Origin: Alphaproteobacteria bacterium
GTDB taxonomy: Bacteria; Pseudomonadota; Alphaproteobacteria; UBA6615
Assembly: GCA_050246875.1 (NCBI GenBank)
Contig: JBFWVF010000012.1
Coordinates: 11,375 to 75,374 of the forward strand
DNA: 64,000 nt
Direction of reading: 5' to 3'
Positions 35,601 through 58,400 of the stretch are shown piece after piece; the first letter of the stretch is position 1, and the number at the start of each line of letters is the position of its first letter. The notes under the pieces were generated by a model that saw only the letters and a program-made list of their open reading frames with translations, did not search any database and had not been told where the DNA came from. The translations under genes and the position numbers were made by a program.

Positions 35601-35759
35601 GGCGCACCTCCTTCTGCCTGCGAGGGGCCCGGCGAGGCCCGCGCAAGGCTATAGCCGGCCGGACGGCGCTCGACCACCCCGATCGGCCGGTGGGCGGCAG
35701 CCGGCTTGGCGGATGTGCCGCGCATCGCTACGCTCCCGGGCCCTGGGGAGGAAAAGAAA

Positions 35760-38141
35760 ATGGCGGACTCCGCGCACGACCGCATCCTCGAGCGGCCCGA
35801 CAGCCTCATCGGCAAGCCGCTGCCGCGCCCCAACGCCCGCCGCCTCGTCACCGGCCGTGGCCGCTATGCCGACGACGTGAAGCTGCCGCGCATGGTGCAT
35901 GCGGCCTACCTCCGCTCGCCCTACGCCCACGCCCGCATCAAGGCCATCGACACCGCCGCCGCCCGCGCCATGCCCGGCGTCACGCACGTCTTCACCGGCA
36001 AGGACCTCGCCGCCGTCTGCAAGCCGTGGGTCGGCGTGCTCAACCACCTCAAGGGCCTGAAGTCGAGCACGCAGTACCCGATGGCGATCGATCGCGCCTG
36101 CTGGCAGGGCGAGCCGGTGGCCGCCGTGCTGGCGGCAAGCCGCGCCGAGGCCGAGGACGCGGCCGAAGCCATCGTCGTCGACTGGGAAGTGCTGCCGGCC
36201 TTCACCGACCCGGCGGCGGCGGCCGAGCCGGGCTCGCCGGTCCTCCACCCCGAGCTCGGCGACAACATCGCGCTGGAGGCCCGCCACGACCACGGCGACT
36301 GGGACCGTGCCGTGGCGGAGGCCGCCACCGTCGTCGAGCACAGCTACACCTTCGGCCGCCATACCGGGGTGACGCCCGAGCCGCGCGGCATCCTCGCCGA
36401 CTACAACGCCGCCGAGCACCGCCTGACGTGCTACCACTCGCACCAGGCGCCGCACATGGTCCAGGACCTGTTCGCCCGCCACCTCGACATCCCGAGCAAG
36501 AACGTCCGCATCGTCTGCGGCGACGTCGGCGGCGCCTACGGCATCAAGGGCCACCTCTACCCGGACGAGATCGGCACCGCGGCCCTGTCGCTGCTGGCGA
36601 AGCGTCCCGTCAAGTTCATCGCCGACCGCATGGAAGGCTTCGCCACCGACATCCATTCCCGCGATCACATCGTTCACGGCAAGCTGGCGATGGCCGGCGA
36701 CGGCACCATCCTCGGCTACTGGCTCGACGACCTCGCCGGCGTCGGCCCTTACTCGATGTATCCGCGCACCAGCGCCGTCGAGGCGCTGCAGGTGCTCAAC
36801 TACACGGGCGGGCCCTACAAGCATAAGACCTACCGCGCTCGCACGCGGGTGGTGTTCCAGAACAAGACGCCGATGAGCCAGTACCGCGCCGTCGGCCATC
36901 CCGTCGCCACGGCGGTCACCGAGACGCTGGTGGAATCGGCGGCCCGCGCGCTCGGGCTCGACCCCATCGACGTGCGGCGGAAGAACGTCATCCCCGACGA
37001 CGCGCATCCGAGCAGGAGCCTCACCGGTGTCCACTTCGAGGGCCTGTCGCACGAGAAGTCGATCGACCGCCTGATGGCGATGATGGACTATGGCAAGCTG
37101 CGCGCCGAGCAGGCGCGGCTGCGCGAGAAAGGCATCTATCGCGGCCTCGGCTTCGCCGCGCTGATCGAACTGACCAATCCCGGCGCCGCCACCTACGGCC
37201 AGGGCGGCGCGCGCATCTCTTCGCAGGACGGCGCCGCCGCGCGGCTCGACCCGTCCGGGCTCGTCATCGTGCAGGCGTCGATCACCGAGCAGGGCCAGGG
37301 TTCCGACACGGTGATCGCGCAGATCGCCGCCTCGGCCTTCGGCACGACCATGGACCGCGTGCGCGTCGTCACCGGCGACACCGACAACGTGCCGGTCGGC
37401 TGGGGCGCCGGCGGCTCGGGCGGCGCCGGCATCGCCGGCGAGGCCACGTTGCGCGCCGCCAAGGCACTGCGCCACAACGTCGTCGCGGTGGCGGGCGCAC
37501 TGCTGCAGGCCGATCCGTCCGGGCTCGACATCCGCGGCGGCAACATTGTCGATGCGGCGACCGGCAACGAGCGCATGCCGCTCGCCGAAGTGGCGCGCAT
37601 CGCCTGGTTCCGCCCCGACACGCTGCCCGAGGGCTTCCAGGCCGAGCCGATGGCCACACGCCACTACGTGCCGCGCGAATACCCGGCCGCCTTCACCAAC
37701 AGCTTCCACGGCGTGCAGGTCGAAGTCGACGTCGAGACCGGCTTCGTGCGCGTGCTCGACTACTGGGGCGTCGAGGATTGCGGCACCGTCATCAACTCCC
37801 TGCTGGTCGACGAGCAGATGCGGGGCGCGACGGTCACCGGCCTCGGCATGGCGCTGTTCGAGGAATGCCGCTACGACTCCGACGGCAACCTGACGAACGC
37901 CACCATGGCCGACTACCTGGTGCCGATGGCCGCCGAGATGCCGGAGATCGCCGTCGGCCACGTCTCGACGCCGACGCTCGAGTCCGAACTCGGCGCCAAG
38001 GGCGCCGGCGAGGCGGGCACGGCCGGCGCGCCGGGCGCCGTGCTCAACGCCGTCAACGATGCCCTGGCGCCGCTCGGCGCCGTGGTCACGTCGACGCCGA
38101 TCACGCCCGCGCGCGTGCTGGCAGCGCTCGGCAAGGCGTGA
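35760..38141 (+). CDS. Xanthine dehydrogenase family molybdopterin-binding large subunit
   Basis: RSPYAHARI, DVGGAYGIK, QYRAVGHP, GAKGAGEAG; clear paralogue of 17679-20072. Confidence 0.92.
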   Translation: MADSAHDRILERPDSLIGKPLPRPNARRLVTGRGRYADDVKLPRMVHAAYLRSPYAHARIKAIDTAAARAMPGVTHVFTGKDLAAVCKPWVGVLNHLKGLKSSTQYPMAIDRACWQGEPVAAVLAASRAEAEDAAEAIVVDWEVLPAFTDPAAAAEPGSPVLHPELGDNIALEARHDHGDWDRAVAEAATVVEHSYTFGRHTGVTPEPRGILADYNAAEHRLTCYHSHQAPHMVQDLFARHLDIPSKNVRIVCGDVGGAYGIKGHLYPDEIGTAALSLLAKRPVKFIADRMEGFATDIHSRDHIVHGKLAMAGDGTILGYWLDDLAGVGPYSMYPRTSAVEALQVLNYTGGPYKHKTYRARTRVVFQNKTPMSQYRAVGHPVATAVTETLVESAARALGLDPIDVRRKNVIPDDAHPSRSLTGVHFEGLSHEKSIDRLMAMMDYGKLRAEQARLREKGIYRGLGFAALIELTNPGAATYGQGGARISSQDGAAARLDPSGLVIVQASITEQGQGSDTVIAQIAASAFGTTMDRVRVVTGDTDNVPVGWGAGGSGGAGIAGEATLRAAKALRHNVVAVAGALLQADPSGLDIRGGNIVDAATGNERMPLAEVARIAWFRPDTLPEGFQAEPMATRHYVPREYPAAFTNSFHGVQVEVDVETGFVRVLDYWGVEDCGTVINSLLVDEQMRGATVTGLGMALFEECRYDSDGNLTNATMADYLVPMAAEMPEIAVGHVSTPTLESELGAKGAGEAGTAGAPGAVLNAVNDALAPLGAVVTSTPITPARVLAALGKA

Positions 38142-38254: not shown

Positions 38255-38947
38255 ATGCCCGCCGTCGAGATCATCAGTGCCTCGACCTGCCCCTACGCCC
38301 AGCGCACGAGGCTCGCGCTGGCCGAGAAGGGCATCGCGCACACCGTCACCGAGGTCGATCTCGAGAACAAGCCGGACTGGTTCCGCGCCGTGTCGCCCTA
38401 CGGCAAGGTGCCGGTGCTGCGCCACGGCGAGACGGTGATCTGGGAATCCTCGGTCATCAACGAGTACCTCGAGGAGGAGTTTCCCGAGCCGCCGCTGCTG
38501 CCGCGCGCGCCGGCCGCGCGTGCCCAGGCGCGCATCTGGATCGACTACGCCAACGTCCGCTTCGCCCCCTTCGTCTACAAGCTGCTACTCGCCCAGTCGC
38601 CAGCCGACCGCGCCGAGCGCGCCCGGCTGCTGCGCGAGTCGCTGCTGTTCATCGAGCGCGAGGCCCTGGCGAAGCGCAAGGAGGGGCCGTGGTTCCTCGG
38701 CCGCCGCCTGTCGCTGGTCGACCTCACCTTCTTCCCGCATTTCGAGCGCCTGCCGGCCGTCGCCCACTATCGCGGCTTCGAGATTCCCGAGGAGTGCGCC
38801 AACATCCGCGCCTGGCTCGCCGCGATGCTCGAACGCCCGTCGGTCGCGGCGCTGCACCAGCCCGATTTCGTCTACATTCGCAACTGGCGCAAGTACGCCG
38901 ACGATTCCGGCACCGGCGTCACGGCCGAGGAGATGCGCCGCTTCTAG
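38255..38947 (+). CDS. Glutathione S-transferase family protein
   Basis: CPYAQR, SPYGKVPVL, ESSVINEYLEE, SLVDL. Confidence 0.92.
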   Translation: MPAVEIISASTCPYAQRTRLALAEKGIAHTVTEVDLENKPDWFRAVSPYGKVPVLRHGETVIWESSVINEYLEEEFPEPPLLPRAPAARAQARIWIDYANVRFAPFVYKLLLAQSPADRAERARLLRESLLFIEREALAKRKEGPWFLGRRLSLVDLTFFPHFERLPAVAHYRGFEIPEECANIRAWLAAMLERPSVAALHQPDFVYIRNWRKYADDSGTGVTAEEMRRF

Positions 38948-38954
38948 GCCCGCC

Positions 38955-39287
38955 TCACCGCCCGGCCAGCGGCGCCATGCCGGGCACCGGCGACGGCACC
39001 AGGATCTTCGCTTCCTGCGACTGCATCAGCGGGCGGATGCGCGCCAGATGCGCCTGCCAGTCGGGCCGCGCTACGTTGGCGCCACGCACCGCCTCGCGTT
39101 CGGCCATGTCGGCGTACTTCCAGAAATGGATGACCTGGTTGAGCGGTCCCAGTTCCGTCTGGAAGTAGCCGAGCAGGTGGTCGCGTAGGCGCGGGTCCTG
39201 CGCCACAAGCCCGCCCTCCTCGTAGGCGCGCCAGTATTCGCCGAGCTTGCCCGGATGGAGGGTGTAGGTACGCAGTTCGAAGATCAT
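38955..39287 (-). CDS. NIPSNAP family protein
   Basis: MIFELRTYTLHPG, TELGPLNQVIHFW, ERxxxR. Confidence 0.88.
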   Translation of the reverse strand: MIFELRTYTLHPGKLGEYWRAYEEGGLVAQDPRLRDHLLGYFQTELGPLNQVIHFWKYADMAEREAVRGANVARPDWQAHLARIRPLMQSQEAKILVPSPVPGMAPLAGR

Positions 39288-39381
39288 GGCGGCAGGCCTC
39301 CCGCGGCCGGATGTGCCGGCGACGGGACACCGGCCGCGCCGCGCGCCGGCGGCGCGGCGCGGCCGGATCGGCCTCGGACTG

Positions 39382-40686
39382 TCAGCCGAAGGCGAGCTTC
39401 GGCAGGAACAGCGCCAGTTCGGGCACGGCGACCAGCAGCACGACAAAGGCCAGCGTGACCAGCACGAACGGCGTCACGCCCATGAAGATGTCCTGCAGCG
39501 GCACCTCGGGCGCCATGTTCTGCATGACGTAGACGTTGATGCCGACTGGCGGCGTGATCAGCGCCAGTTCCGTCATGATGACGACGAAGATGCCGAACCA
39601 CACCGGGTCGAAGCCCATCGCCTCCATCACCGGAAAGACGAAGGGGATGGTGAGGATCAGCATGCCCCAGACATCGAGCACCGCGCCGAGAACGAGGTAC
39701 ATGCAGACGAACAGCGCCAGCACGACGTACTTGCTGAGGCCGGCGTCGGTGATGGCGCCGATGATGCTGTCGGTGAAGTGCGTGACGACGAGGAAGGCGC
39801 CGATGATGTGGCCGGCGACGATGACGGCGAAAATCATGGCGCTGGTGTAGGCGCTGTCGAGCAGGGCCTGCCGCAGCCCCGGCCAGCGCAGCCGGCCCAT
39901 CACGCCGGCCACCAGCAGCACGCCGGACACGCCGATACCGGCCGCCTCGCTGGGCGTGAAGACGCCAAAGTAGATGCCGCCGAGCACGATGGAAAAGATG
40001 GCGATGATCGGCAGCAGCTTGCCGAGCGAGTCGAAACGTTCCGACCAGCTATGCGCGGGGCCGACCGGGCCCATCTCCGGATTGATGATGCAACGCACCC
40101 AGATATAGGCGGCATACATCAGCGCCAGCAGGATGCCCGGCACGATGCCGGCGATGAACAGATGCCCGATCGAGGTTTCCGTCCAGATGCCGTAGGCGAC
40201 CATGATGACGCTCGGCGGAATCAGGATGGCGAGCGTGCCGGCCGACGCGATGGCGCCGGTGGCCAGCTTGGGGTCGTAGCGGTAGCGTCGCATCTCCGGC
40301 ATCGACATCGGCGCGATGGTCGCGACCGCGGCAACGCTCGAGCCGGTGACGGCGCCGAAGCCGGCGCAGCCGGCGACGGACGTGATCGCCAGCCCGCCGG
40401 GCAGGCGCCCGAACCACTTCTCGACGCAGTCGTAGAGATCGACCGCTATCCTTGTGTGATAGACGAGCTGCCCCATCAGGATGAACAGCGGGATCGCCAC
40501 CAGCGTGAACGAGCTGCCGCGCTCGATGGCGTTCATGGAGATCTGGCTCATCGCCGGCACGAGGCCGACCATGACCCAGGTACCGCCGATGCCGACGATG
40601 GCCATGGAGAAGGCGATCGGCACGCCGATGGCGATCAGCGCCAGCATGATGGCGATGCCGATCCAGCCGATGGTCTGCGGATCCAT
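39382..40686 (-). CDS. TRAP transporter large permease (DctM)
   Basis: AIPLFILMG, GSSVA, GTLAILIPPS, ITPPVGIN. Confidence 0.93.
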   Translation of the reverse strand: MDPQTIGWIGIAIMLALIAIGVPIAFSMAIVGIGGTWVMVGLVPAMSQISMNAIERGSSFTLVAIPLFILMGQLVYHTRIAVDLYDCVEKWFGRLPGGLAITSVAGCAGFGAVTGSSVAAVATIAPMSMPEMRRYRYDPKLATGAIASAGTLAILIPPSVIMVAYGIWTETSIGHLFIAGIVPGILLALMYAAYIWVRCIINPEMGPVGPAHSWSERFDSLGKLLPIIAIFSIVLGGIYFGVFTPSEAAGIGVSGVLLVAGVMGRLRWPGLRQALLDSAYTSAMIFAVIVAGHIIGAFLVVTHFTDSIIGAITDAGLSKYVVLALFVCMYLVLGAVLDVWGMLILTIPFVFPVMEAMGFDPVWFGIFVVIMTELALITPPVGINVYVMQNMAPEVPLQDIFMGVTPFVLVTLAFVVLLVAVPELALFLPKLAFG

Positions 40687-40688
40687 GC

Positions 40689-41225
40689 TCAGGCCCTCTC
40701 GCCAGCGTTGTCACCGGCGGCGATGCGTGCATCCGGGTCGCCGCTGTGCGAACCGACGCGATCCGGGCCGAGGATCAGGACGACGACGAACATGACGCTC
40801 ATGAGGGCGCCGGCCACGCCGACGAAGGCATAGACCAGCGCGGTCGGAAAGCTGATGTAGTCGGACGCCTCGCCGACCGCGATCATGCGCGGAATTTCGC
40901 CGAACACGCGCCACGTCAGCAGCACCGAGAAGAACAGGCCGGCGAGGCACCACACGAGGTTGGCGGCGTAGCGCGCCGCGCCGCGCAACTTGCGATGGAT
41001 CAGTTCCATGCGAATGTGGCCGCCGTGCCGCGTGACGAACGGCAGGCTGGCGAAGAAGATCCACAGCAGCAGGATCTCGTTGGCCTCGATCGACCACACG
41101 ATGGGGTCGTTGAGGAGATAGCGAAGGCCGACATCGACCGTGATGATCGCCGTCAGCATCGGAATGAGTATGAGGGCTCCGAACCGGTGCAACAGCGTGA
41201 CGACGCCGTCGACGAGCCTGAGCAT
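40689..41225 (-). CDS. TRAP transporter small permease (DctQ)
   Basis: DVGLRY...WSIE, GHIRME, 4 TM segments, between dctP and dctM. Confidence 0.88.
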   Translation of the reverse strand: MLRLVDGVVTLLHRFGALILIPMLTAIITVDVGLRYLLNDPIVWSIEANEILLLWIFFASLPFVTRHGGHIRMELIHRKLRGAARYAANLVWCLAGLFFSVLLTWRVFGEIPRMIAVGEASDYISFPTALVYAFVGVAGALMSVMFVVVLILGPDRVGSHSGDPDARIAAGDNAGERA

Positions 41226-41356
41226 GACGAACTCCCTCCCCCGGACACTGTCCCCCGCGACCGCGCCTCTTGCGGGCGTCCGCGCGGGTGTCGCGGGCAT
41301 GCCGGCGGTCGCCCGCGCCCAAGCGCGCGGACGACCGCCCGGACCCGCTGCCGAAG

Positions 41357-42517
41357 CTACTTGCCGACGATGCCCTGGACCGGCTGGGTGACCGCCTGCC
41401 GCATGATCGCCTTCCAGTCCATCTTCTCGTACTTGGCGATGGCGGCGTTCATGTCGGCCAGCACGGCCTTGCCCGGCTTGCCGTCCTTCTCGAGGCCGGC
41501 GACGTACTCGCCGTCGATGTCGGCGACGGCCTTCTGCCAGACCGCGAACTCCTCCTTCGTCGGGCGGATCAGCTCGACGCCCTTGGCCTTGAAGGCGTTC
41601 AGCGCGGTCTCGCCCTCGGGTTCGTAGAATCCCTGCGCCATGTACGCGGCGTAGCCCTGCATGAAGTCCGCGACGACCTTCTTCAGGTCGGCCGGCAGCG
41701 CGTCGAACCACTTCGGCCCAAGACAGTATTCGAGGTCGACGGCGAACAGGCTGACCGCCGAGTGATACTTGCTGATCTCGTGCAGCTTGAAGGTCTGCAG
41801 CGCCGGGTCGTTCATGGCGACGCCGTCGACCACGCCGCGCTGCAGCGAGGTGTAGGCCTCGGCCGACGGCACGTTGACCGCGATGCCGCCGAGCGCCTGC
41901 ATGATCTGCGCCTGGATGCCCGCCGACAGGCGCACCTTCACGCCCTTGAAGTCGGCGATGGTGCGCAGCGGCTTGCTGCCGATGACGTTGTACGGCGGTG
42001 TGACGGTGAGACGGCCGGCATAGACGCCCTGCTGGTCGAACTCCTTCTTGAAGTACTTGGGATAGAGTTCGTTGAACACCGCGGTGCCGATCACCGAATT
42101 CTCGAACTTGAACGGCAGGGTGAGCATCTGCGTCAGGGAGAAGCTCTTCGGCTCGTAGATCGAGAAGCAGGCCGTGTAGTCGGCGATGCCGTCGCGCGCC
42201 GCCGTAAAGCCCTGGCGCTGCGGGTGCAGGGACTCGCCGGGATAGGTCTCGAAGACGATCTTGCCCTTGGTGATGGTCTCCAGCCGCTTGAGGCCGGTGA
42301 TCATCGCCTTCTCGAGCGGCGCCGTCGCCGCGACGTAGGAGGCATAGCGCAGCTTGATCGGCTCGCCGGTGTAGGTGACCGTGAACTTCTCGTAGTCGAG
42401 CTTGCCTTCGAGCCAAGCCTGCCCGTCGCCCTGCATCTCGGCGGCCGAAGCCGCCCCGCCCGCCAGCGTCAGCGTCGCCACAGCGGCCGCCAGAACCCAG
42501 TTCGGTGCCTTCGTCAT
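41357..42517 (-). CDS. TRAP transporter substrate-binding protein (DctP)
   Basis: Signal peptide, DFKGVKVR, EAYTSLQRGVVDG. Confidence 0.9.
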   Translation of the reverse strand: MTKAPNWVLAAAVATLTLAGGAASAAEMQGDGQAWLEGKLDYEKFTVTYTGEPIKLRYASYVAATAPLEKAMITGLKRLETITKGKIVFETYPGESLHPQRQGFTAARDGIADYTACFSIYEPKSFSLTQMLTLPFKFENSVIGTAVFNELYPKYFKKEFDQQGVYAGRLTVTPPYNVIGSKPLRTIADFKGVKVRLSAGIQAQIMQALGGIAVNVPSAEAYTSLQRGVVDGVAMNDPALQTFKLHEISKYHSAVSLFAVDLEYCLGPKWFDALPADLKKVVADFMQGYAAYMAQGFYEPEGETALNAFKAKGVELIRPTKEEFAVWQKAVADIDGEYVAGLEKDGKPGKAVLADMNAAIAKYEKMDWKAIMRQAVTQPVQGIVGK

Positions 42518-42850
42518 CGGAGTTCCTCCCCTCCTTGTGCTGCCTGCATGCGCAGGTCGCCGGATCTTGTCCCGCCGGCGAAGAGCGCCCCCCCGGGCGC
42601 CGCGTTCGACGCGCGGCGGAAGTCTACGCGGGTTGCAACCTTCGCCACCACAACCTTCGGCCGGGAGCCCGCCGTTGCCCTAGATCGGCCGTGACGATGT
42701 CTCGGCCGGTGAAACATGGCCTCGCGCGGCACGGCAGTTGTGAAGCGGCGGCGCGGTCGGCAAAGCGGCTGCGCCGGTATATCCTGCCGGCAGCGACGGC
42801 CACCCGGCTGCCATTGCCGGCAGTCCGGGGCCCGACGAGTTGGAGGATGC

Positions 42851-44083
42851 ATGGTTCATTTGCGCGAGATGCCCGAGCATCTGCGCAACGCGCTGGTCAA
42901 CCAGGAGGTGCCGACGTTCGACACCACCCCCTGGGTCGATGCCAGACCGTTGCGCGAAAGCCGGGTCGCCCTCATCAGTACCGCCGGCCTCCACCGGCGC
43001 GAGGATGCCCCGTTCACGCCCGGTGCCGGCGACTATCGCCTGATCCCGGACGACTACGACATGAACGGGCTGGTGATGAGCCACCTGTCGATGAACTTCG
43101 ACCGCTCGGGCTTCTACCAGGACCTCAACACGGCGTTTCCGATCGACCGGCTGCGCGAGCTGCGCGACGCCGGGGAGATCGGCTCGGTCGCCGGCCGTCA
43201 CTACTCCTTCATGGGCGCGACACCGCCCAACGTGATGGAGAAGGTGGCCCGCGATCTCGCCGGACTGCTGAAGCAGGACAGGGTCGACGCCGTCGTTCTC
43301 TGCCCCGTCTGACCGCAGTGCACGCGCGCCGTGGGCGGGCTTGCACACTATCTCGAAGACGAAGGCATCGCGACGGTCGGCATCAGCCTGATCCGCAAGC
43401 ACACCGAGAAGATCCGTCCGCCGCGGGCGCTGGCCGTGCCGTTCGAGCTCGGCCGGCCGTTCGGCGCGCCGGACGAGCCGGATTTCCAGCGCCGCGTGCT
43501 GCGCGACCTGCTGGGCCTGCTCGACCGCAAGTCGGGCCCCGTGCTGGAGGACTTCCCCGACCCGCCGCCGGGCGAGCAGGAGGAAGGCTACGGCTATGCC
43601 TGCCCGGTGAACCTCGCGCCGCCGGTCGAGAACCTGTCGGACGAGGACCTCGTGCGCCGCGCGCTGGAGCAGGAAATCGCCCTGCTGCGGCCGTGGTACG
43701 AGGAGTTCAAGGGACGGCGCAACGGCCGCACGGCGTTCGGCATCTCCGGCTGGACGCCCGAGGCGATCGCCGCCTTCCTCGCCAAGCTGGTGGTCGAGGA
43801 GGACAAGGCGGCACCGCCGGTCGAGGGCCTGTCGCTCGCCGTCGGCTTCAAGCGCCTCGCCGACGACATCCGCTACTTCTACACCGAGGCGGCCATCGCG
43901 CGGCCCGGCACGAAGACCAGCGATGTCGAGCTCGGCAACTGGATGTATGGCGAGACCATGCTGGGGAAGGTGCTGATCGAGATCCGCAACTGGATGCTCG
44001 ACCGCGACGATCCCCAGATGAAGGTGCTCGCCACCACCACCATCGTCCCCGGCCACCAGCGCTTCCGCACGAAGCACGGCTAG
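42851..44083 (+). CDS. GrdB/PrdB-like selenoprotein 1 (Sec at UGA 43310-43312, codon 154; 410 aa)
   Basis: SD GGAGG then ATG 42851; RVALISTAG, D.N..FPIDRL, HYSFMG, DAVVLCPV-U-PQCTRAVGGLAHYLE.EGI.TV, PPRAL.VPF.LGRP; track ORFs 42716-43312 and 43331-44083 are in one frame; SECIS-like hairpin follows. Confidence 0.88.
43318..43346 (+). promoter_or_regulatory. Putative bacterial SECIS element 1
   Basis: GTGCA-C-GC-G-CGCC-GTG-GGCG-G-GC-T-TGCAC hairpin starting 5 nt after the UGA, with a G-containing apical loop ~19-21 nt from it. Confidence 0.75.
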
Positions 44084-44110
44084 GCCACGGGAGACGCGAA
44101 GCGTACCGCG

Positions 44111-44139
44111 CGGGGCCCGTCGCGAAACGACGGGCCCCG
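44111..44139. other. Strong intergenic stem-loop between the two selenoprotein genes
   Basis: CGGGGCCCGTCG-CGAAA-CGACGGGCCCCG perfect 12-bp inverted repeat, weak U-tract. Confidence 0.65.
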
Positions 44140-44220
44140 TTGCGTTTCCGGCGCAGCGCGCGCGGCGACCGGGATGCTACGCTGGGCGCGAAGAAGACGG
44201 CCGCCAGCCCGCGAGGTGCC

Positions 44221-45450
44221 ATGGTCCACGTCCGCGACTTTCCCGGCTACATCCGGGAACAGCTACTCAATCTCGACATGCCGGAGTTCGACCGCACGCC
44301 CTGGGCCGAGGGTCCGCCGCTCGCCGAGCGTCGCGTGGCGCTGGTCAGCACCGCCGGCCTGCATCTCCGCGACGATCGCCGCTTCGAGGGTTACGACCCC
44401 GGCTACCGCGTCATCCCGGACGACACGCCGGCGTCCGAACTGATGATCAGCCACGTGTCGACGAACTTCGACCGCACCGGCTTCTACCAGGACGTCAACG
44501 TGATGCTGCCGCTCGACCGTCTGCGCGAACTGCGCGACGCGGGCCTGTTCGCCAGTATCGCCAGCCGCCACTACTCCTTCGTCGGCGCGGTGCCCCCTAA
44601 CCTGATGGAGCCGGTGGCCCGCGACCTCGCCGGCATCCTGCGGCAGGACAGGGTCGACGCCGTCGTTCTCTGCCCGGTCTGACCGGCCTGCACGCGCGCC
44701 GTGGGCGGGCTTGCACACTACCTGGAAGACGAAGGCGTCCCGACGACCTCGCTGAGCCTGATCCGCTCGCACACCGAGAAGATCAGGCCGCCGCGCGCGC
44801 TGTTCGTGCCGTTCGAACTGGGCCGGCCGTTCGGCGGGCCCGACCAGCCCGACTTCCAGCGCCGCGTGCTGCGCGACTGCCTCGATCTGTTCAACCGCCC
44901 GGCCGGGCCCGTGCTGGAGGACTTTCCCGATCTGCCACCCGGCAGCGAGGCCGAGGGGCACGGCTGGGCCTGTCCGGTCAGCTTCGCCCCGCCGGCGGCG
45001 AACCTCAGCGACAGCGAGGCGATCGAGCAGGCGCTGCTCGGCGAGATCGCGTTGCTTCGGCCGTGGTACGAGGACTCGCGGCGGCGGCGCGGCCGCACCG
45101 CCTTCGGCCTCTCGAACAGCACGCCGGAGGACATCGCGCGCTTCCTCGCCGCCTTCGCCGTCCATCTCGACGCGACGCCGAACCCGGACCCGATGAAGCC
45201 GCTCGGCATCGCCTACAAGCTGCGCGCCGACGACCTGCGCCAGTACTACATCGAGGCGGCGATCGCGCGGCCCGACCACCGCGCCACCGACATCGAGATC
45301 CTCAACTGGATGTGGGCGGAGACGACGCTGGGCAAGCTGCTCGTCGCCGTGCGCGACTGGGCCTATGAGTGCGACGACCCGGTGCTGAGGAAACTCGCCC
45401 TGTCGGCGATGGTGCCGATGAGCCAGCGCCACCACACGAAACACGGCTGA
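44221..45450 (+). CDS. GrdB/PrdB-like selenoprotein 2 (Sec at UGA 44680-44682, codon 154; 409 aa)
   Basis: GAGG then ATG 44221; DAVVLCPV-U-PACTRAVGGLAHYLE; in frame with track ORF 44701-45450; collinear with copy 1 from MVH to TKHG. Confidence 0.88.
44689..44715 (+). promoter_or_regulatory. Putative bacterial SECIS element 2
   Basis: TGCACGCGCGCCGTGGGCGGGCTTGCA, identical to the core of SECIS 1 at the same distance from the UGA. Confidence 0.75.
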
Positions 45451-45459
45451 GGCGCGGTA

Positions 45460-47673
45460 TCAGGCCTTCACCGTGATGGCCGGCGCCGTGCCGGCGCGCG
45501 CCACGACGCGGCCGACGATGGCCGCGTGCGCGTCGCCCGCCGCATGCAGCGCCACGAGGCAGGCCCCGGCGTGATCGGCCGGCACGCCGGCGACGAGACC
45601 GCCGGAGGTCTGCGGATCGACCAGCAGCGCCGCGCCGGGTGCCGCGAGATCGCCGATTGCCTCATAGACGGCGGCGCGGTTGGCCGGCGCGAGCGTGCTC
45701 TCGATGCCCTCGCCGAGGAGGGCGCGCGCGCCGGGCAGGGCCGGCAGCGCGGCGAGGTCGAGTTCGGCGTCGACGCCCGAAGCCGCCAGCATTTCGCCGA
45801 GATGGCCGGCGAGGCCGAAGCCGGTCACATCCGTCGCCGCGCGCACGCCATGCGCCGCGAGGATGGCGGCAGCCGGGCCGACCGGGCGCAGCATCGAGGC
45901 CATCGCGGCCGCGACCCACGCCGCCTCGGCGCGCGCGCGCATGTCGGCGGCGAGCACGATGCCGGTGCCGAGCGGCTTGGTCAGGACCAGCGCGTCGCCC
46001 GGCACCAGCCCGCGCTTGCGCAGCAGCCGGTCGGGCACACCGTGGCCGGTGACGGCGAGGCCGAAGGCGAGTTCGGCGCCCTCGCCGGTGTGGCCGCCGA
46101 CGAGCACGGCGCCGGCCTCGGCCAGCGCCGCCGCCGCGCCGCCGAGCAGCGCTGCAAGGTCCTCCTCCTGCTTCGCCGCGGGACCGTCCGGTAGCACGAC
46201 GGTGGCGAGCGCGGTGCGCGGCTGTGCCCCCATCGCCCAGATGTCGGCGAGGCAGTGCAGCGCGGCAATGCGGCCGAACAGGTACGGGTCGTCGACGAAG
46301 GCACGGAACTGGTCGACCGTCTGCACCAGCACCTCGCCCACCGGCGGCGGTGCGATGATCGCCGCATCGTCCGGCGCGTCGAGGCCGGCGAGCACGTCGG
46401 CGCGCGCCTGCGCCGGCAGGCGGGCCAGCGCGCGGCGCAGCACGCTCGCCGGAATCTTGGCACCACAGCCGCCGCAGCGCATCTGCGCAAGTGCCGCCTC
46501 ACCGTCCGCGCCGCTGCCCGCGTCCATCGCCGGAAGCTGCCGGTAGCGGCGCATCCAGCGACGGTCGATCCAGTCCTTGAGACGCCACATGGCAGCGCCC
46601 GAGAAGGCGATGCCAGCGCGCGAAGCCACGGCGCTCTTTTCGCCGGTCGAGATCAGCGCCAGCGCATGGCGCTGCGGCGTCCACGGGCGCAGTGCCCGGC
46701 CGGTCGCGGCGCGGCGCAGATTGTCGGCCAGCACCGGCCCGGCGCGCACGGCGTAGACGCCGGACTTCGGCAGGGCGCGGCCCTCGACCGACGCCAGATC
46801 GCCGGCGGCGAACACGCCCGGATGCGAGACCGATTGCAGCGTCGTCGCCACACGCACGAAGCCCTTGCCGTCGACCGCCAGCCCGGATGCGGCGGGCCAC
46901 TCCGGCGCGCCGGCGCCGGTGACGAGGATGGCGCGGTCGAAGGCGATGCCGGCGGCACCGTCGCGCTCGATGCGGCCCGCCGCGACGGCGCGCACCGGAT
47001 GGCCGAGCGCCGTGGCGATATCGCGATCGGCCAGCGCCCGGGTCAGCGCCCGCCGGACAGCGGCGTTGTGTGTCGGCACGATCTCGGCCGAGGCATCGGC
47101 GAGCACGACAGACAGGCGCGCGCCGGCGATCTTGCCGAGCCGGTATTGCAGCGCCATCGCCAGCTCCGTGCCGCCAGCGCCGGCGCCGATGATGGCGAGG
47201 CGGAACGGCGCCGTGCCGCGGGCAAGATCGCGTTCCCAGTCCGCGACCGCCGCCAGCAGTCCGTCGATCGGCTTGACCGCCACGCAATGCTCGCGCGCGC
47301 CCGGGATCGCCGCGGCATCGGGAGTCGAGCCGGTGTCGAGGGAGACGAAATCAAAGGCCACGGGCGGGCGGCCGCCGTCGACCAGTACGCGCCGACCGGC
47401 GAGGTCGAGCCCCGTGGCCGATGCATGCACCAGCCGCGCCCCGGCGAAGCGGGCCAGGCGCACGAGGTCGATATGGCATTCGGCGCGCGTGTAGTGACCG
47501 GCGAAATGGCCGGGGATCATGCCCGAGTAGGGCGTCTCGACGTCGCGCGCGACCAGCGTCAGCCGCACCCCCGGCTCCGGCCGCATGCCGAAGCGGCGCA
47601 GCACCGCGACATGGGCATGGCCGCCGCCGACCAGCACGATGTCGGTGCGGATCGGCACGGTCGGACGGTTCAT
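45460..47673 (-). CDS. selD: Selenide, water dikinase fused to an N-terminal FAD/NADH oxidoreductase domain
   Basis: N-terminal VLVGGGHAH, YSGMIPG, IIGAGAGG; C-terminal MRCGGCGAK, DDAA, QTVD, GGHT, LTKPLGTG, DVTGFGLAGH, DPQTSGGL. Confidence 0.93.
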   Translation of the reverse strand: MNRPTVPIRTDIVLVGGGHAHVAVLRRFGMRPEPGVRLTLVARDVETPYSGMIPGHFAGHYTRAECHIDLVRLARFAGARLVHASATGLDLAGRRVLVDGGRPPVAFDFVSLDTGSTPDAAAIPGAREHCVAVKPIDGLLAAVADWERDLARGTAPFRLAIIGAGAGGTELAMALQYRLGKIAGARLSVVLADASAEIVPTHNAAVRRALTRALADRDIATALGHPVRAVAAGRIERDGAAGIAFDRAILVTGAGAPEWPAASGLAVDGKGFVRVATTLQSVSHPGVFAAGDLASVEGRALPKSGVYAVRAGPVLADNLRRAATGRALRPWTPQRHALALISTGEKSAVASRAGIAFSGAAMWRLKDWIDRRWMRRYRQLPAMDAGSGADGEAALAQMRCGGCGAKIPASVLRRALARLPAQARADVLAGLDAPDDAAIIAPPPVGEVLVQTVDQFRAFVDDPYLFGRIAALHCLADIWAMGAQPRTALATVVLPDGPAAKQEEDLAALLGGAAAALAEAGAVLVGGHTGEGAELAFGLAVTGHGVPDRLLRKRGLVPGDALVLTKPLGTGIVLAADMRARAEAAWVAAAMASMLRPVGPAAAILAAHGVRAATDVTGFGLAGHLGEMLAASGVDAELDLAALPALPGARALLGEGIESTLAPANRAAVYEAIGDLAAPGAALLVDPQTSGGLVAGVPADHAGACLVALHAAGDAHAAIVGRVVARAGTAPAITVKA

Positions 47674-47697: not shown

Positions 47698-47796
47698 TGG
47701 CGGAAAGGAGTGGGAGTCGAACCCACCGGGCACGTGTCCACACGCGCCCCACCGGATTTGAAGTCCGGGCGCCCCACCGGGGTGCGGTTCCCTTCC
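47698..47796 (-). tRNA. selC: tRNA-Sec (anticodon UCA)
   Basis: Reverse complement GGAAGGGA...CCGGA-CTTCAAA-TCCGG...long variable arm...GTGGG-TTCGACT-CCCAC-TCCTTTCC-G-CCA; 8-bp acceptor stem, encoded CCA. Confidence 0.96.
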
Positions 47797-48642: not shown

Positions 48643-48871
48643 GCGACGCTCCGTTCAATTATTGAAAAGTATATGGATAGATTAGTAAAATGGTGCGAAA
48701 TCAAAGTATTTTCAACCACCAAGACCAAATAAATATCTCGTTCAATTTTTCTGGATTCTCCTGACAATGAAGCGCCCGGACTGGCGCGGCCTGCTCGTGC
48801 CACGGTTGTGCCGCGCGCCCCTGTCATCCTCTAGACTGCCGGCCAACAAGAGCGCGGGGAGGCTGGGTGTC

Positions 48872-51196
48872 ATGGGTGAGTTTTCGGTCGGCCAGCCGGT
48901 GCCGCGGCGCGAGGACTCACGCCTGCTACGCGGCCAGGGTCGTTACCTCGACGACATGGACCTGCCGCGCCAGACCTGGATGGCGGTGGTGCGCTCGCCG
49001 CACGCGCACGCGGCGATCCGCGCGATCGATACGCACGCCGCGCAGGCGTCGCCCGGCGTGCTGGCGGTGCTGACCGGCGACGACTACACGGCGGACGGAC
49101 TCGGCTCGCTACCCTCGATGGCCGCCTACAAGCGCCGCGACGGACGGCCGATGTTCGTGCCGTTCCGCCCCGCCGTCGCCGTCGGACGCGCACGCGTCGT
49201 CGGCCAGCCGGTCGCCGTGGTGGTGGCGCGCACGCCGGAGCAGGCGCGCGACGCCGCCGAACTGGTCGACGTGGACTACGCCGGACTGCCGGCCGTCGTC
49301 TCCGCCTTCGACGCGGCGCAGCCCGGCGCGCCGGTGCTGCACGACGACTGCCCGGGCAACGAATCCTACTACTACGAGGCCGGCGACAAGGCCGCCGTCG
49401 ATCATGCGTTTGCCAGTGCCGCGCATGTCGTCGAGCAGCGTCTCGTCATCAACCGCATCACGGCGAACGCCATGGAGCCGCGCGGCGCCATCGGCGACTG
49501 GGACGAAGGGACCGGGCGCTACACGCTCTACACCGGCTTCCAGCGGCCGTGGCTGTTCCGCAACGCCATCGCCGAGACGACACTGAAGATTCCCGAGACG
49601 AAGCTGCGCCTCGTCACCGGCGATATCGGCGGCAGCTTCGGCCTGCGCGGCTCGGTCTATCCCGAGCTGATCCTCGTCCTGTGGGCAGCGCGGCGCGTCG
49701 GCCGTCCGGTCAAGTGGATTGCCACGCGCAGCGAGAGCCATATCAGCGACGACGATGCCCGCGACAACATCGTCGACGCGGCGCTGGCGCTCGACGCGGC
49801 CGGCAATTTCCTCGCCGTGCGCATCCGCAGCTGGGCCAATCTCGGCGCCTATGTGTCGTTCCGCGGCGCGCTGCCGCCGGTGGTCAACATCGGCTCGGTC
49901 GCCGGCACCTACACGACGAAGGCGATCCACGTCGCCATCTCCGGCATGCTGACCAACACCCACTGCACCTCGCCCTACCGCGGCGCCGGGCGGCCCGAGG
50001 CGGCCTACATGATCGAGCGGCTGGTCGACCTCGCGGCGCGCCGGCTCGGCCGCGACCCGGCCGACCTGCGGCGGCAGAACACCGTTCCCGCCAGCGCCAT
50101 GCCTTACAGGACGCCGCTGACCTACACCTGGGACAGCGGCCACTTCGACGCCAACCTCGAAAAGGCGCTGGCGCTGGCCGACTGGGCCGGCTTCCCTGCC
50201 CGCCGAGCCGAGGCGGCAGGGCGCGGCGTGCTGCGCGGCATCGGCGTGACCAACACCATCGAGCAGGCAGCGGACGCCACCATCGAGACGGCCGAGCTGC
50301 GCTTCGATGCCGGCGGCGACGCGACGCTGGTCACCGGCTCGGTGCATCACGGCCAGGGCCACTACACGGTGCACAGCCAGATTCTCCACGACCGGCTCGG
50401 CATCGATCCGGCACGGCTGGCCTTCATCCAGGGCGACACCGACAAGGTCGCCTTCGGCATGGGCACCGGCGGTTCTCGCTCCTCCGCGATGAGCGGCGGC
50501 GCGCTGGTGATGGTCGCCGGCAAGGTGATAGAGAAGGGACGGCGCATCGCCGCGCACCTGCTGGAGGCGGCGGAGGCCGACATCGCCTTCGAGGGCGGCC
50601 GCTTCATGGTCGCCGGCACGGACCGCGGCGTCGACGTGCACGAGGTGGCGCGCGCCGCCTTCAACCCGGCGAAGCTGCCCAAGGGCATGGAGCCGGGCCT
50701 CTACGAGACGGCGACGTACAAGGCCGAGGCCGGCAACTTCCCCAATGGCTGCCATGTCTGCGAGATCGAGGTCGATCCCGACACCGGCGTCGCGCGGCTC
50801 GCCAGCTACGTCGTCGTCGACGATGTCGGCACGGTGCTCAACCCGCTGCTGTTGGAGGGCCAGATCCACGGCGCGCTGGCGCAGGGCATCGGCCAGGTGC
50901 TGATGGAGGACAAGACCTACGATGCCGCGACGGGCCAGGTGCTGGCCGGCTCGTTCATGGACTACGCCATGCCGCGCGCCGCAGACCTGTGCGACGTGAC
51001 GGTGGTCTCGAACCCGGCGCCGACGCCGACCAACCCGCTCGGCGTCAAGGGCGCCGGCGAGGCAGGCACGGTCGGCGCCCTCCCCGCCGTGACGCTGGCC
51101 ATCCTCGACGCGCTGGCGCCGCTCGGCGTGACGCATATCGACACGCCGGCGACCTCGGAGCGCATCTGGCAGGCGATGCGGCAGGCGCGGAAGTGA
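48872..51196 (+). CDS. Xanthine dehydrogenase family large subunit (CoxL form II-like)
   Basis: RREDSRLLRG.G.Y.DD, DIGGSFG, PYRGAGRPEA, GQGH, NPLGVKGAGEAG. Confidence 0.92.
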   Translation: MGEFSVGQPVPRREDSRLLRGQGRYLDDMDLPRQTWMAVVRSPHAHAAIRAIDTHAAQASPGVLAVLTGDDYTADGLGSLPSMAAYKRRDGRPMFVPFRPAVAVGRARVVGQPVAVVVARTPEQARDAAELVDVDYAGLPAVVSAFDAAQPGAPVLHDDCPGNESYYYEAGDKAAVDHAFASAAHVVEQRLVINRITANAMEPRGAIGDWDEGTGRYTLYTGFQRPWLFRNAIAETTLKIPETKLRLVTGDIGGSFGLRGSVYPELILVLWAARRVGRPVKWIATRSESHISDDDARDNIVDAALALDAAGNFLAVRIRSWANLGAYVSFRGALPPVVNIGSVAGTYTTKAIHVAISGMLTNTHCTSPYRGAGRPEAAYMIERLVDLAARRLGRDPADLRRQNTVPASAMPYRTPLTYTWDSGHFDANLEKALALADWAGFPARRAEAAGRGVLRGIGVTNTIEQAADATIETAELRFDAGGDATLVTGSVHHGQGHYTVHSQILHDRLGIDPARLAFIQGDTDKVAFGMGTGGSRSSAMSGGALVMVAGKVIEKGRRIAAHLLEAAEADIAFEGGRFMVAGTDRGVDVHEVARAAFNPAKLPKGMEPGLYETATYKAEAGNFPNGCHVCEIEVDPDTGVARLASYVVVDDVGTVLNPLLLEGQIHGALAQGIGQVLMEDKTYDAATGQVLAGSFMDYAMPRAADLCDVTVVSNPAPTPTNPLGVKGAGEAGTVGALPAVTLAILDALAPLGVTHIDTPATSERIWQAMRQARK

Positions 51197-51425: not shown

Positions 51426-52304
51426 ATGTCCGACAAACTCACAGTCCGCGACTACTTCAAGCGTTTCCCTGATGAGGACGCTTGCCTCCTGCATGTGATG
51501 GAAGTCCGCTACGGGCTCCGTCACGTCTGCGGCCACTGTGGGAAGGACGCGACCTTTCATCGGCTGGCGAAGCGCAAGGCGTTCTCCTGCGCGGCCTGTG
51601 GCGCGCACGTCTACCCGTGCGCCGGGACGGTTTTCGAGGATAGCCGGACCCCGCTGCAACTCTGGTTCTATGCCATCTACCTGTTCGTCACGACGCGCCA
51701 CGGTGTCAGCGGCAAGGAACTGCAGCGTCAGCTTGGCGTGACGTACAAGACGGCTTGGCGGATGGGCCACCAAATCCGCGACCTGATGAACAAGGCCGAT
51801 GGCTTCGCCATGCTGCGCGGCCACGTCGAACTTGATGAGGCGTATGTCGGCGGCCGGCGCAGCGGTGGCAAGCGCGGGCGCGGCGCGCCGGGCAAGACCA
51901 TCGTATTCGGCATGGTCGAGCGTGGCGGCCGGATGGCGGCGGAAGTGATCCCGAACATCAAGAAGTCGACGCTTCGCGAGGCGACGCTTCGCAACGTCGA
52001 GCCCGGCTCGCTGGTGTCGACCGATGAACTGATGAGTTACGGCTTACTGGACGGCGACGGCTACAAGCACGGCACGGTCGCGCACGGCCAGAAGGACTAT
52101 GCCCATTACGACTATCGCCACGACGCGGTGCACCACGTCAACAGCGTCGAGTCGTTCTGGCGGGTGTTCAAGCAGTCGGTAACGTCGACACATATCCATG
52201 TGTCGGAGCGGCACATGAACCGTTATCTCAACGAGTTCGCTTTCCGCTCAAATCATCGGGCGATGCAGAACGCGATGTTCGATCTTCTGATCGGCGCTGT
52301 CTGA
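51426..52304 (+). CDS. IS1595 family (ISXO2-like) DDE transposase
   Basis: Zn ribbon CGHC..CAAC, GVSGKELQRQLGVTYKTAWRM HTH, ELDEAYVGG, STDE, NSVESFW, YLNEFAFR. Confidence 0.95.
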   Translation: MSDKLTVRDYFKRFPDEDACLLHVMEVRYGLRHVCGHCGKDATFHRLAKRKAFSCAACGAHVYPCAGTVFEDSRTPLQLWFYAIYLFVTTRHGVSGKELQRQLGVTYKTAWRMGHQIRDLMNKADGFAMLRGHVELDEAYVGGRRSGGKRGRGAPGKTIVFGMVERGGRMAAEVIPNIKKSTLREATLRNVEPGSLVSTDELMSYGLLDGDGYKHGTVAHGQKDYAHYDYRHDAVHHVNSVESFWRVFKQSVTSTHIHVSERHMNRYLNEFAFRSNHRAMQNAMFDLLIGAV

Positions 52305-56474: not shown

Positions 56475-58400
56475 CTATCCGGCAACCTCCGGCTGTTGCG
56501 CGGCGGCGAGCAGAGAGGACGCCGGGCGCAGCAGGCGCCTTCCCTCGCCTTCGCGGCGGGTCATGCCGACGCGGTCGAGATACTCGAGAATCTCGACCGA
56601 GAGATTGCGGCCGATGCCCAGTTCGTCGCGGAAATTCGTCGGCTGCAGATTGCCTGCGCGTGCCAGCCGCTCCGCCGTCCGCGCCCATTGCGCGGCGGTT
56701 TCCGTCGGCGCGAAGCGGTTGCGGCCGATGCGCACGACGAGGCCGAGACGCTCGGCACGGCGCAGCACCGACATGACACGCTCGGGCTGCGCGCGCAGCA
56801 GCTTGGCGATCTCGTTGGCGACCGGCGGCGCGTTGCCGGCGGCCTCGAACAGCGGCTCGATGTCGCGCCACAGCGCGGCGTCGGCGGCCTGCAACGCCGG
56901 CCTGTGCGTCGGAAGACGCCACCACGGCCCGGTCGCGTCGACCTTGTTCTCGCCCCGCAACGCGTCGAGCACCGCCGCGACGACGGCCGGGCCGGCGGGA
57001 CCGCCGGCGGTGCGCCGCAGCGTGCCGGCATCCGGCCCGAGACGATCCGGCTGGCCCTTGTGGGCCATCGCCAGTGCCGCCAGCAGGCGGGTGCCGAGAT
57101 CCTGCCAGTGGCGCGGCGCCAGCGCCACGCCGCCGGCCCGTTGCATCGGCACGCTGGCCATCAGGGCGTCGCGCGCGGCGCCATCGAGATTGCGCGCCAG
57201 GAAGAAGCGATCGAGGTCGACGCCGCCGGGCGTGGCATCGAGCAGGCCCGCGAGCGCCGTCGCGGGATCGCCTTCGGCCAATGCCGCCAGCGCCGCCAGA
57301 CGGTCGCTGCGCGCCCGACCGCGCGGCGGCGGGAACGGATCGACGATGCGCCCGCCGGCCAGCGTCTGCCGCCCAGACTGGTCGCGCAGCACGAAGCGGT
57401 CGCCGGCGAGCAGCCCGGCCGGACGGTCGAGCGCCAGGCGCACCAGCCCTTCGCCGCCGGGCGCGAGGCTCGGCCCGCCCAGCACCCAGGCGCGCGCCGG
57501 AATGTCGCCGGCGCCATGATGCAGGTGGACGGGCGTGCCGTCGGCGAAGACGCGCGTCGCGTCAGCCGGCACGCGGGCCAGCACGTCGGCGCGGTCGGTC
57601 GGCGCGTGCAGGTCGGCGGCGACGAGCCAGTCGCCGCGCGTGATGCCGGCCTTCTCGAGCCCGGCGGCGACGATGTTGACGGCGCAGCGGTCGCCCGCCT
57701 GGCCGCTCTCGGCCTTGCGGTCCTGCACGTGCAGGCCGCGCACCCGCACCTCGATGCCGGCGGGGCTCAGCATCAGGCGATCGCCGACGGCGACGCGCCC
57801 CGAATAGGCCGTGCCGGTGACGACGAGGCCGGCGCCGGCGAGCGTGAAGGCGCGGTCGATCGACAGGCGGAAGCCACCGCGGGCGGAACGTGACGGCAGC
57901 GCTGCCGCCGTGGCCGCAAGATGCGCGGAGAGTTCCGGAATGCCGTCGCCGGCGATGGCCGATACCGGGAAGACCGGCGATCCGGCCAGCGCGGTCGGCG
58001 CCAGCATGTCCTCGATCTGCCCCCTCACCTCGGCGACGCGCTCGGGCGGCACGCGGTCGATCTTGGTCAGCGCGACGACGCCGCGCGAGATGCCGAGCAG
58101 GTCGATGATGCCGAGATGCTCGCGCGTCTGCGGCATCGGCCCGTCGTCGGCGGCGACGATCAGCAGCACCGTATCGACGCCGGCGACACCGGCGACCATG
58201 GCGCGCACGAAGCGCTCGTGGCCGGGCACATCGACGATGCCGAGCACCGTGCCGTCGGGCAGCGCCGTGTAGGCGAAGCCGAGATCGATGGTCATGCCGC
58301 GCCGCTTCTCCTCCGGCAGGCGGTCGGCGTCGACGCCGGTCAGGGCACGCACCAGAGCGGTCTTGCCGTGGTCGATATGGCCGGCGGTGGCGATGATCAT
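56475..58400 (-). CDS. selB: Selenocysteine-specific translation elongation factor
   Basis: [41 protein letters not shown]-terminal [20 protein letters not shown]. Confidence 0.96.

Follow-up and report, generated by a model that had tools for sequence, protein, structure and literature searches.

Two adjacent selenoprotein genes in a 64,000-nucleotide (nt) stretch of alphaproteobacterial DNA (GenBank contig JBFWVF010000012.1; the whole stretch is called the window here, and all coordinates are window positions) are almost identical to each other around their selenocysteine (Sec) codons, and the question that this locus raises is whether the identity reflects selection on RNA structure before as well as after each UGA. 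Positions 43273-43350, in gene A, and 44643-44720, in gene B, agree at 74 of 78 nt, a count from an initial annotation of the window that direct comparison confirms. The annotation ascribed the identity to selection on both sides of the recoding site, acting 3' on a hairpin resembling a selenocysteine insertion sequence (SECIS) and 5' on a second hairpin; it named local gene conversion as the alternative and proposed covariation and synonymous-site conservation in orthologs as the check. We consider it highly probable that the locus holds two ordinary SECIS elements and no conserved upstream hairpin, and that the 5' identity comes from a conserved peptide, codon bias and probable gene conversion.

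Gene A (42851-44083, + strand) encodes a PrdB-like selenoprotein of 410 amino acids (aa), and its paralog gene B (44221-45450, + strand) one of 409 aa. Both are open from start to stop once a single TGA, codon 154 in each, is read through. These Sec codons (43310-43312 in gene A and 44680-44682 in gene B, + strand) align with TGA in the homologs and lie in the motifs C-P-V-U-P-Q-C and C-P-V-U-P-A-C, so that the U-x-x-C at the Sec site reads U-P-Q-C in A and U-P-A-C in B. The genes stand in tandem on the + strand with a spacer of 137 nt and share 62% of their amino acids and 71% of their nucleotides. Both score above the cut-off of 22 bits for the Pfam family GRDB (PF07355), A with 30.9 and B with 31.3 bits. 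The top NCBIfam model for both is PrdB (TIGR04483), at 106.5 and 104.5 bits and under its cut-off of 300; the match places residues 28-224 on profile positions 20-218 of 238, with the Sec at the homologous place. No family in Pfam or NCBIfam matches the C-terminal ~185 residues of A and B, and a sequence search of the Protein Data Bank with gene A as the query returned nothing at E <= 0.01. Judged by Pfam family and motif, A and B are very probably tandem paralogs of the marine 'PrdB-like' U-x-x-C selenoprotein family, and we hold the explanation as a whole with that same confidence.

Homologs were collected at several taxonomic depths. A family-level genome search gave matches at E <= 1e-30 in 34 of 46 genomes and 9 of 18 genera, with one TGA in each full-length match. 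A scan of one genome per species yielded 34 further loci, including loci from Thermodesulfobacteriota, Burkholderiales, Acidobacteriota and a spirochaete. Of 75 tblastn high-scoring segment pairs 70 were kept, the five that covered fewer than 330 residues being dropped, which left 52 unique coding sequences; in all 52 the reading frame is interrupted just once, by a TGA at the homologous codon. A class-level sample, in which 38 of 401 genomes matched, contributed a further 28 loci; at the Sec position 23 of them have TGA and 5 a cysteine (Cys) codon, TGT or TGC. Pairing was scored in ungapped alignments of 52 sequences (A2) and of 75 Sec forms (A3), in which the UGA occupies columns 49-51. Synonymous variation was profiled pairwise against an amino-acid- and pair-specific expectation, for sets of 36 alphaproteobacterial and of 52 sequences, and is given below as the ratio of observed to expected (obs/exp).

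On the 3' side of the UGA both of the proposed checks supported the annotation. The core of the downstream hairpin is a 17-nt stem-loop with the loop C-G-U-G-G, 11 nt after the UGA, at 43324-43340 in gene A (alignment columns 63-79) and, with an identical sequence, at 44694-44710 in gene B, both on the + strand. Its pairs 63-79 and 64-78 are each preserved in 73 of the 75 Sec forms, and 66-76, 67-75 and 68-74 in all 75. Double changes have replaced G-C at 63-79 by C-G in five sequences, A-U in two and U-A in one, C-G at 64-78 by U-A in six and A-U in one, and the pair 66-76 by U-A in one. Neither the covariation score nor the percentage paired was reached by any of 500 shuffles, and in the 75 sequences the SECIS register is 72.6% paired, compared with 28-52% in slid registers. 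RNAalifold, given 114 columns and no hint, returned just the five core pairs and no upstream structure. The same codons are the most constrained of the gene: codons 157-163 form its lowest 7-codon synonymous window, with obs/exp of 0.11 in the 36 sequences and 0.17 in the 52, and none of the 36 departs from ACG, GCC, GGC or GGG. The apical loop has G-U in 75 of 75 sequences, as CGUGG (40), CGUGA (26), CGUGU (4), CGUUG (3), CGUCG (1) or GGUCG (1). It may be drawn as GUG, or as CGUGR with pair 69-73 open, on a stem of 5-7 base pairs (bp), at a UGA-to-loop distance of 17-18 nt (columns 52-68 or 52-69) that includes the 11-nt spacer (columns 52-62).

The hairpin is absent from all five Cys-encoding homologs, in which the T-R-A codons vary and V-G/S-G/A is replaced, and there the segment folds at -3.8 kcal/mol, as against -10.6 kcal/mol in the Sec forms. 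In four other genomes that carry a tandem A/B pair, the SECIS block is identical between the copies at 25-28 of 28 nt. A genome-wide search with a covariance model of the UGA plus SECIS found just copy A (61.3 bits) and copy B (57.7 bits); the matches that follow (24.3 and 22.1 bits) do not lie in frame and are due to chance. An Rfam scan of positions 42000-46000 with E up to 10 returned no SECIS family and two chance matches, CRISPR-DR20 and veev_FSE. Taken together, the constrained synonymous sites, the compensatory changes and the absence of the hairpin from the Cys forms identify the 3' part as a canonical bacterial SECIS that is selected at the RNA level. The apex thus stands as annotated, while the TGCA/TGCA lower stem fares less well. 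In the minimum free energy fold of copy A (43318-43346, + strand; -19.4 kcal/mol, z -1.7 against shuffles) this stem is present as UGC/GCA, and it is weakly supported: its pairs are kept in 53, 62 and 62 of 75 sequences with wobble changes only, and the two outermost pairs in 12 and 21.

A canonical SECIS within the coding sequence would have each UGA read as selenocysteine. By analogy with Escherichia coli, SelB carrying Sec-tRNA(Sec) would bind the hairpin at the mRNA entrance of the ribosome, and this requirement would freeze the codons ACG CGC GCC GUG GGC GGG, the rare GGG included, which may be why the 3' block is the same in every paralog pair. The bacterial SECIS (bSECIS) consensus model of bSECISearch, as given in PMC13188914, has an apical loop of 3-9 nt, an upper stem of 4-16 bp and a UGA-to-loop distance of 16-37 nt, with a G in the first or second loop position that is usually followed by G or U. 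The stems at 43324-43340 and 44694-44710 fit this description (PMC13188914): they are in frame and immediately 3' of the UGA, with an upper stem of 5-7 bp and a loop of 3 or 5 nt, N-G-U-N-N, whose outer bases are often paired (CGUGG). Nothing essential differs from the model; the core here varies unusually little from phylum to phylum, since it is at the same time the coding sequence for the conserved peptide T-R-A-V-G/S-G/A. The minimal SECIS of E. coli fdhF is described in PMC8659212 as a 17-nt upper stem-loop 11 nt from the UGA, and the elements here share that core length and spacing as well as the G-U in the apical loop. They differ from fdhF in two details. The bulged U at minihelix position 17 is missing, column 65 being a G that faces another G in 47 of 75 sequences and is paired in 28, and the loop G-U comes one position earlier.

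The 5' side gave a different result. The proposed upstream hairpin (43279-43302 in gene A and 44649-44672 in gene B, + strand) can be drawn in both copies, as can the downstream one, and folding bears this out; its free energies of -12.9 and -15.6 kcal/mol are, however, no better than those of shuffles (z 0.0 and -0.1). The proposed pairs join columns 18-22 with 37-41 and columns 24-27 with 31-34. Across the 52 sequences these positions are 59.2% paired, compared with 58.2% after shuffling, and 82 of 500 shuffles do at least as well as the real alignment. In the 75 sequences the figures are 57.5% and 55.8%, and moving the register along yields covariation scores that match or exceed that of the proposed pairing. 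The three outermost pairs fail to form in 63, 56 and 53 of the 75 sequences. Synonymous sites in codons 136-152 evolve at about the average rate of the gene (obs/exp 0.83-1.45), except at codon 146 (0.62) and the thinly sampled codon 144. The upstream segment folds equally well where no Sec is encoded, at -7.8 kcal/mol in the Cys forms and -7.9 in the Sec forms, with a mean z of -0.1 among the homologs. In the nearest ortholog, metagenomic locus L096, a G-to-A change breaks pair 20-39.

A conserved RNA element upstream of the UGA is thus not supported by these comparisons, and neither of the proposed checks spoke for it. The drawable fold would have simpler sources. Spelling the conserved peptide V-D-A-V in preferred codons (GUC GAC GCN GUC) would by itself generate the inner stem, and the Cys forms share this peptide with similar codons; the outer stem appears confined to the source genome. 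With the UGA in the A site, moreover, the 3' arm, 8-19 nt upstream, would lie within the ribosome footprint, so the hairpin could not exist during decoding. The annotated selection on both sides of the UGA accordingly narrows to the SECIS on the 3' side and, on the 5' side, the single codon preceding the UGA, which is discussed below.

If no hairpin preserves the 5' block, its identity has to come from elsewhere. The four mismatches in the 78 nt lie at 43306/44676 and at 43316-43318/44686-44688. The annotation singled out codons atypical for this DNA, and they are indeed rare: counted over ten genes of the window with Pfam support (5650 codons), AGG accounts for 3.6% of arginine, GTT for 1.7% of valine, CTT for 2.1% of leucine and GCA for 4.4% of alanine codons, and all four are common to both copies. 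The window is 70% G+C, with a G+C content at third codon positions (GC3) of about 0.9. Where A and B encode the same amino acid, 72% of codons are the same gene-wide, compared with 58% expected from codon usage alone, so high identity between the copies is the background; codons 67-92 and 313-344 are other stretches with 100% synonymous identity. Protein constraint and shared codon bias would account for much of the near-perfect match over codons 142-155, probably with a further contribution from a short tract of gene conversion in which copy A was the donor and copy B the recipient.

The 5' identity is nonetheless unusual. Measured at sites that vary among the 36 alphaproteobacterial homologs, the longest run of matches covers 24 sites in codons 141-151, a 33-nt perfect match, and 25 of 20000 column permutations reach it in a test that ignores site-to-site rate differences. 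In the four other genomes with an A/B pair, the upstream 36 nt are identical at 21-29 positions, compared with 35 of 36 here, which makes the identity peculiar to the source genome. In trees built without codons 136-172, copy A falls inside an A-type clade (31 rows; support of 99 in the Shimodaira-Hasegawa-like approximate likelihood ratio test, SH-aLRT) and copy B outside it, beside four B-type copies. Within codons 141-153, on the other hand, each copy is nearest to the other, at 36 of 39 nt, the next best sequence reaching 33 of 39. Near the UGA, site patterns that unite A and B are overrepresented (p 0.028 when L096 is the third taxon, p 0.007 when it is locus L098, for regions picked post hoc). 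L096, the nearest clean ortholog, with 92% amino-acid and ~86-88% nucleotide identity, reads AAG and GTC at the codons that are AGG and GTT in both A and B; its contig is cut before gene B. A further relative, L100 (92.6% identity), has frameshifts and stops and a single gene. On balance, we place a short conversion from A into B somewhat above an even chance. Gene conversion, which the annotation had offered as its alternative, is plausible for the 5' block by the run test, the site patterns and the nearest-sequence comparison, and is not needed for the 3' block.

Among competing explanations, the one that survives best has the 5' identity arise without conversion, by ancestral retention under strong protein constraint and the extreme codon bias of this DNA. 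The peptide D-x-V-D-A-V-x-L-x-P-V is conserved even in the Cys forms, the gene-wide codon identity is high and other windows are synonymously identical throughout, as noted above, and the A-type ortholog L004 is identical to copy A at 33 of 39 nt in codons 141-153. The approximately unbiased (AU) test also leaves room for a younger common origin of A and B. Retention explains less readily why both copies carry the two rare codons AGG and GTT, why A and B share residues R144, V149 and C151 that are absent from all four B-type orthologs, or the outcome of the run test. We regard it as possible, with the probabilities tilted against it.

Far less survives of the proposal that the entire 78-nt identity, SECIS included, is one recent conversion tract and carries no information on selection. 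The closeness of the tandem copies, together with the run test and the site patterns, is in its favor. The 3' block, however, is equally conserved in the 75 homologs of several phyla and in the four other paralog pairs, so that conversion is not needed there; codon 156, in the middle of the 78 nt, differs at all three bases, each copy matching its own orthologs; and the synonymous sites of codons 158-163 are constrained in orthologs, not freely varying. We consider this proposal very improbable. Weakest of all, and in our estimate exceedingly improbable, is the idea that the upstream hairpin aids recoding from the 5' side as another functional RNA element, perhaps one limited to this lineage: both copies can form it and keep the two rare codons inside it, and the longest match run covers it, but its outer pairs, register, synonymous sites, folding energy and Cys forms, the break in L096, the divergence of the other paralog pairs and the ribosome footprint all speak against it.

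Several observations weigh against our interpretation of two SECIS elements, no upstream element and a probably converted 5' block. The 75 sequences are related to one another, so that the counts overstate the number of independent events, and the shuffle control ignores phylogeny. Folded alone, the 43-nt segment of copy B takes an alternative structure (z -0.1). Just 9 of 500 shuffles reach the percentage paired of the upstream positions in the 75 sequences, a faint signal that lies within the range the tool gives for related sequences under no constraint. A metagenome search for close relatives with both copies found none, which leaves a slight chance to an upstream structure restricted to the lineage. 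As to conversion, a tree that joins A and B outside codons 136-172 is not rejected by the AU test (p 0.207), and with a background of 72% a count of 11 identical codons in 12 is unremarkable (about p 0.1). Composition bias may also pull the copies together. Codon 156, flanked by the identical blocks, has stayed specific to each paralog (CAG in A, GCC in B), which limits any conversion tract to about 42 nt. Conversion is thus suggested as a better account of the 5' identity than the hairpin, and is not proven. Finally, we infer SelB binding and Sec insertion at the two UGAs, and likewise the role of the codon before them, from sequence comparison.

That codon, GUC for valine at position -1 (43307-43309 in gene A and 44677-44679 in gene B, + strand), is under synonymous constraint and appears to be a real but small 5' signal, the sole trace of upstream selection to survive. 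It is GTC in 47 of 52 sequences, compared with 22.0 expected from the Val usage of each gene. With an obs/exp of 0.34 in the 52 sequences (0.11 in the 36), it ranks sixth from the bottom among 158 well-sampled columns, just five SECIS codons being lower, and no other conserved Val column is as uniform except SECIS codon 161 (GTG in 48 of 52). The 75 Sec forms have GUC in 62, GUU in 8, GUG in 3, GUA in 1 and AUA in 1; the five Cys forms have GUC in 2, GUU in 2 and GUA in 1. The codon might act through the P site or as 5' context on the competition between Sec insertion and termination by release factor 2 (RF2). We propose only tentatively that GUC before the UGA is a conserved 5'-context element, which by way of the P-site tRNA or the mRNA bases would tip the balance between SelB-delivered Sec-tRNA and RF2. 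In E. coli fdhF, too, the codon before the UGA is a Val codon, and PMC4513850 places a Val-tRNA in the P site there. Literature searches for an upstream SECIS element in bacteria and for a bacterial -1 codon effect turned up nothing on an upstream hairpin, a result that does not show that none is in print.

One candidate partner for codon -1 was rejected. A long-range helix between C-G-U-C-U (codon -1 and the first base of the UGA) and the A-G-A-C-G of the conserved GAA-GAC-GAA is 84.2% paired, compared with 84.6% after shuffling, and shows no compensatory change. The codons that include this partner, 169-175 (43355-43375 and 44725-44745; GAA-GAC-GAA-GGC-ATY-CCG), are uniform in the 36 alphaproteobacterial homologs, with single-codon obs/exp of 0.06-0.38, and this includes GAA, which makes up just 22% of Glu codons in the window. 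As a separate signal they were likewise rejected: the obs/exp of the 7-codon stretch rises from 0.59 in the 36 sequences to 0.81 in the 52, no deeper than background dips elsewhere in the gene (codons 71-77 and 246-252).

This PrdB-like family conforms to the standard bacterial model, in which the sole element lies downstream, and both the family and its SECIS signal are already known. The locus illustrates how a conserved peptide (V-D-A-V) in preferred codons, together with homogenization of tandem copies, may create the illusion of a hairpin in a coding region, and how orthologs, Cys-form homologs and other paralog pairs can tell such an illusion from a real SECIS. It also offers as leads the synonymous constraint on the codon before the UGA and the idea that a block kept identical by the SECIS could seed gene conversion between selenoprotein paralogs.

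The family to which A and B are assigned appears in the marine surveys as 'Proline reductase PrdB' (pfam07355, U-x-x-C) and is listed there among the most abundant marine selenoprotein families (PMC1088965, PMC2398784), with 42 genes in the Sargasso Sea set (PMC1088965) and 235 Sec and 110 Cys sequences in the Global Ocean Sampling set (PMC2398784, Table 2). A and B resemble it in their score above the PF07355 cut-off, in U-x-x-C, in their occurrence in marine alphaproteobacterial metagenome-assembled genomes and in the large excess of Sec over Cys forms, the match being one of Pfam family and motif and not of the catalogued sequences. They are ~410 aa long, and no family matches their C-terminal half of ~185 residues. 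With the clostridial D-proline reductase subunit PrdB (TIGR04483) they align over residues 28-224, the Sec falling at the homologous place, while their scores stay short of that equivalog cut-off of 300 and their neighbors are a tripartite ATP-independent periplasmic (TRAP) transporter and selenium-utilization genes, not a prd operon. A search for a PrdA/GrdE-type partner (PF09338) found none in the 98.9%-complete genome, a weak negative since 14 control genomes also gave no match. 'Proline reductase' is here a label by homology only. The class-level search also showed that many alphaproteobacterial genomes have homologs of ~200 residues (query residues ~22-230), with or without a TGA, which may be PrdB-sized relatives that lack the C-terminal half.

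Genes for selenium utilization, whose presence also supports the SECIS reading, form an island within 15 kb downstream of genes A and B, all on the - strand. They comprise a selD-like gene fused to a pyridine nucleotide-disulfide oxidoreductase domain (45463-47649; Pfam Pyr_redox_2, AIRS and AIRS_C; start codon not fixed), the tRNA-Sec gene selC with anticodon UCA (47702-47796; found by ARAGORN, and by Rfam RF01852 at 71.8 bits), selB with winged-helix mRNA-binding domains (56475-58400; TIGR00475 at 429 bits, over its cut-off, and Pfam SelB-wing_2 and SelB-wing_3) and selA (58397-59800, 5' end approximate; Pfam SelA, 533 bits).

The spacer between A and B contains a G+C-rich hairpin (44116-44144, + strand), the site of the CRISPR-DR20 chance match (19.8 bits), which could be a terminator or attenuator between the paralogs. 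Upstream of gene A is a divergent TRAP transporter (DctM at 39385-40686, DctP at 41360-42517). In the metagenomic loci L096 (positions 1-287) and L100 (positions 1-549), DNA matching 38399-38947 is joined almost directly to gene A, so that the transporter stretch (~38948-42727) is either an insertion here or a deletion there. Positions 725-2097 of L100, a contig of doubtful quality, hold the gene A relative mentioned above; directly next to it comes the 3' end of the selD fusion, without an intervening gene B. Molybdopterin-binding subunits of the xanthine dehydrogenase family, at 35655-38138 and 48767-51193 (+ strand), flank the selenium genes, and an IS1595-family transposase gene (51426-52301, + strand) lies inside the selenium neighborhood.

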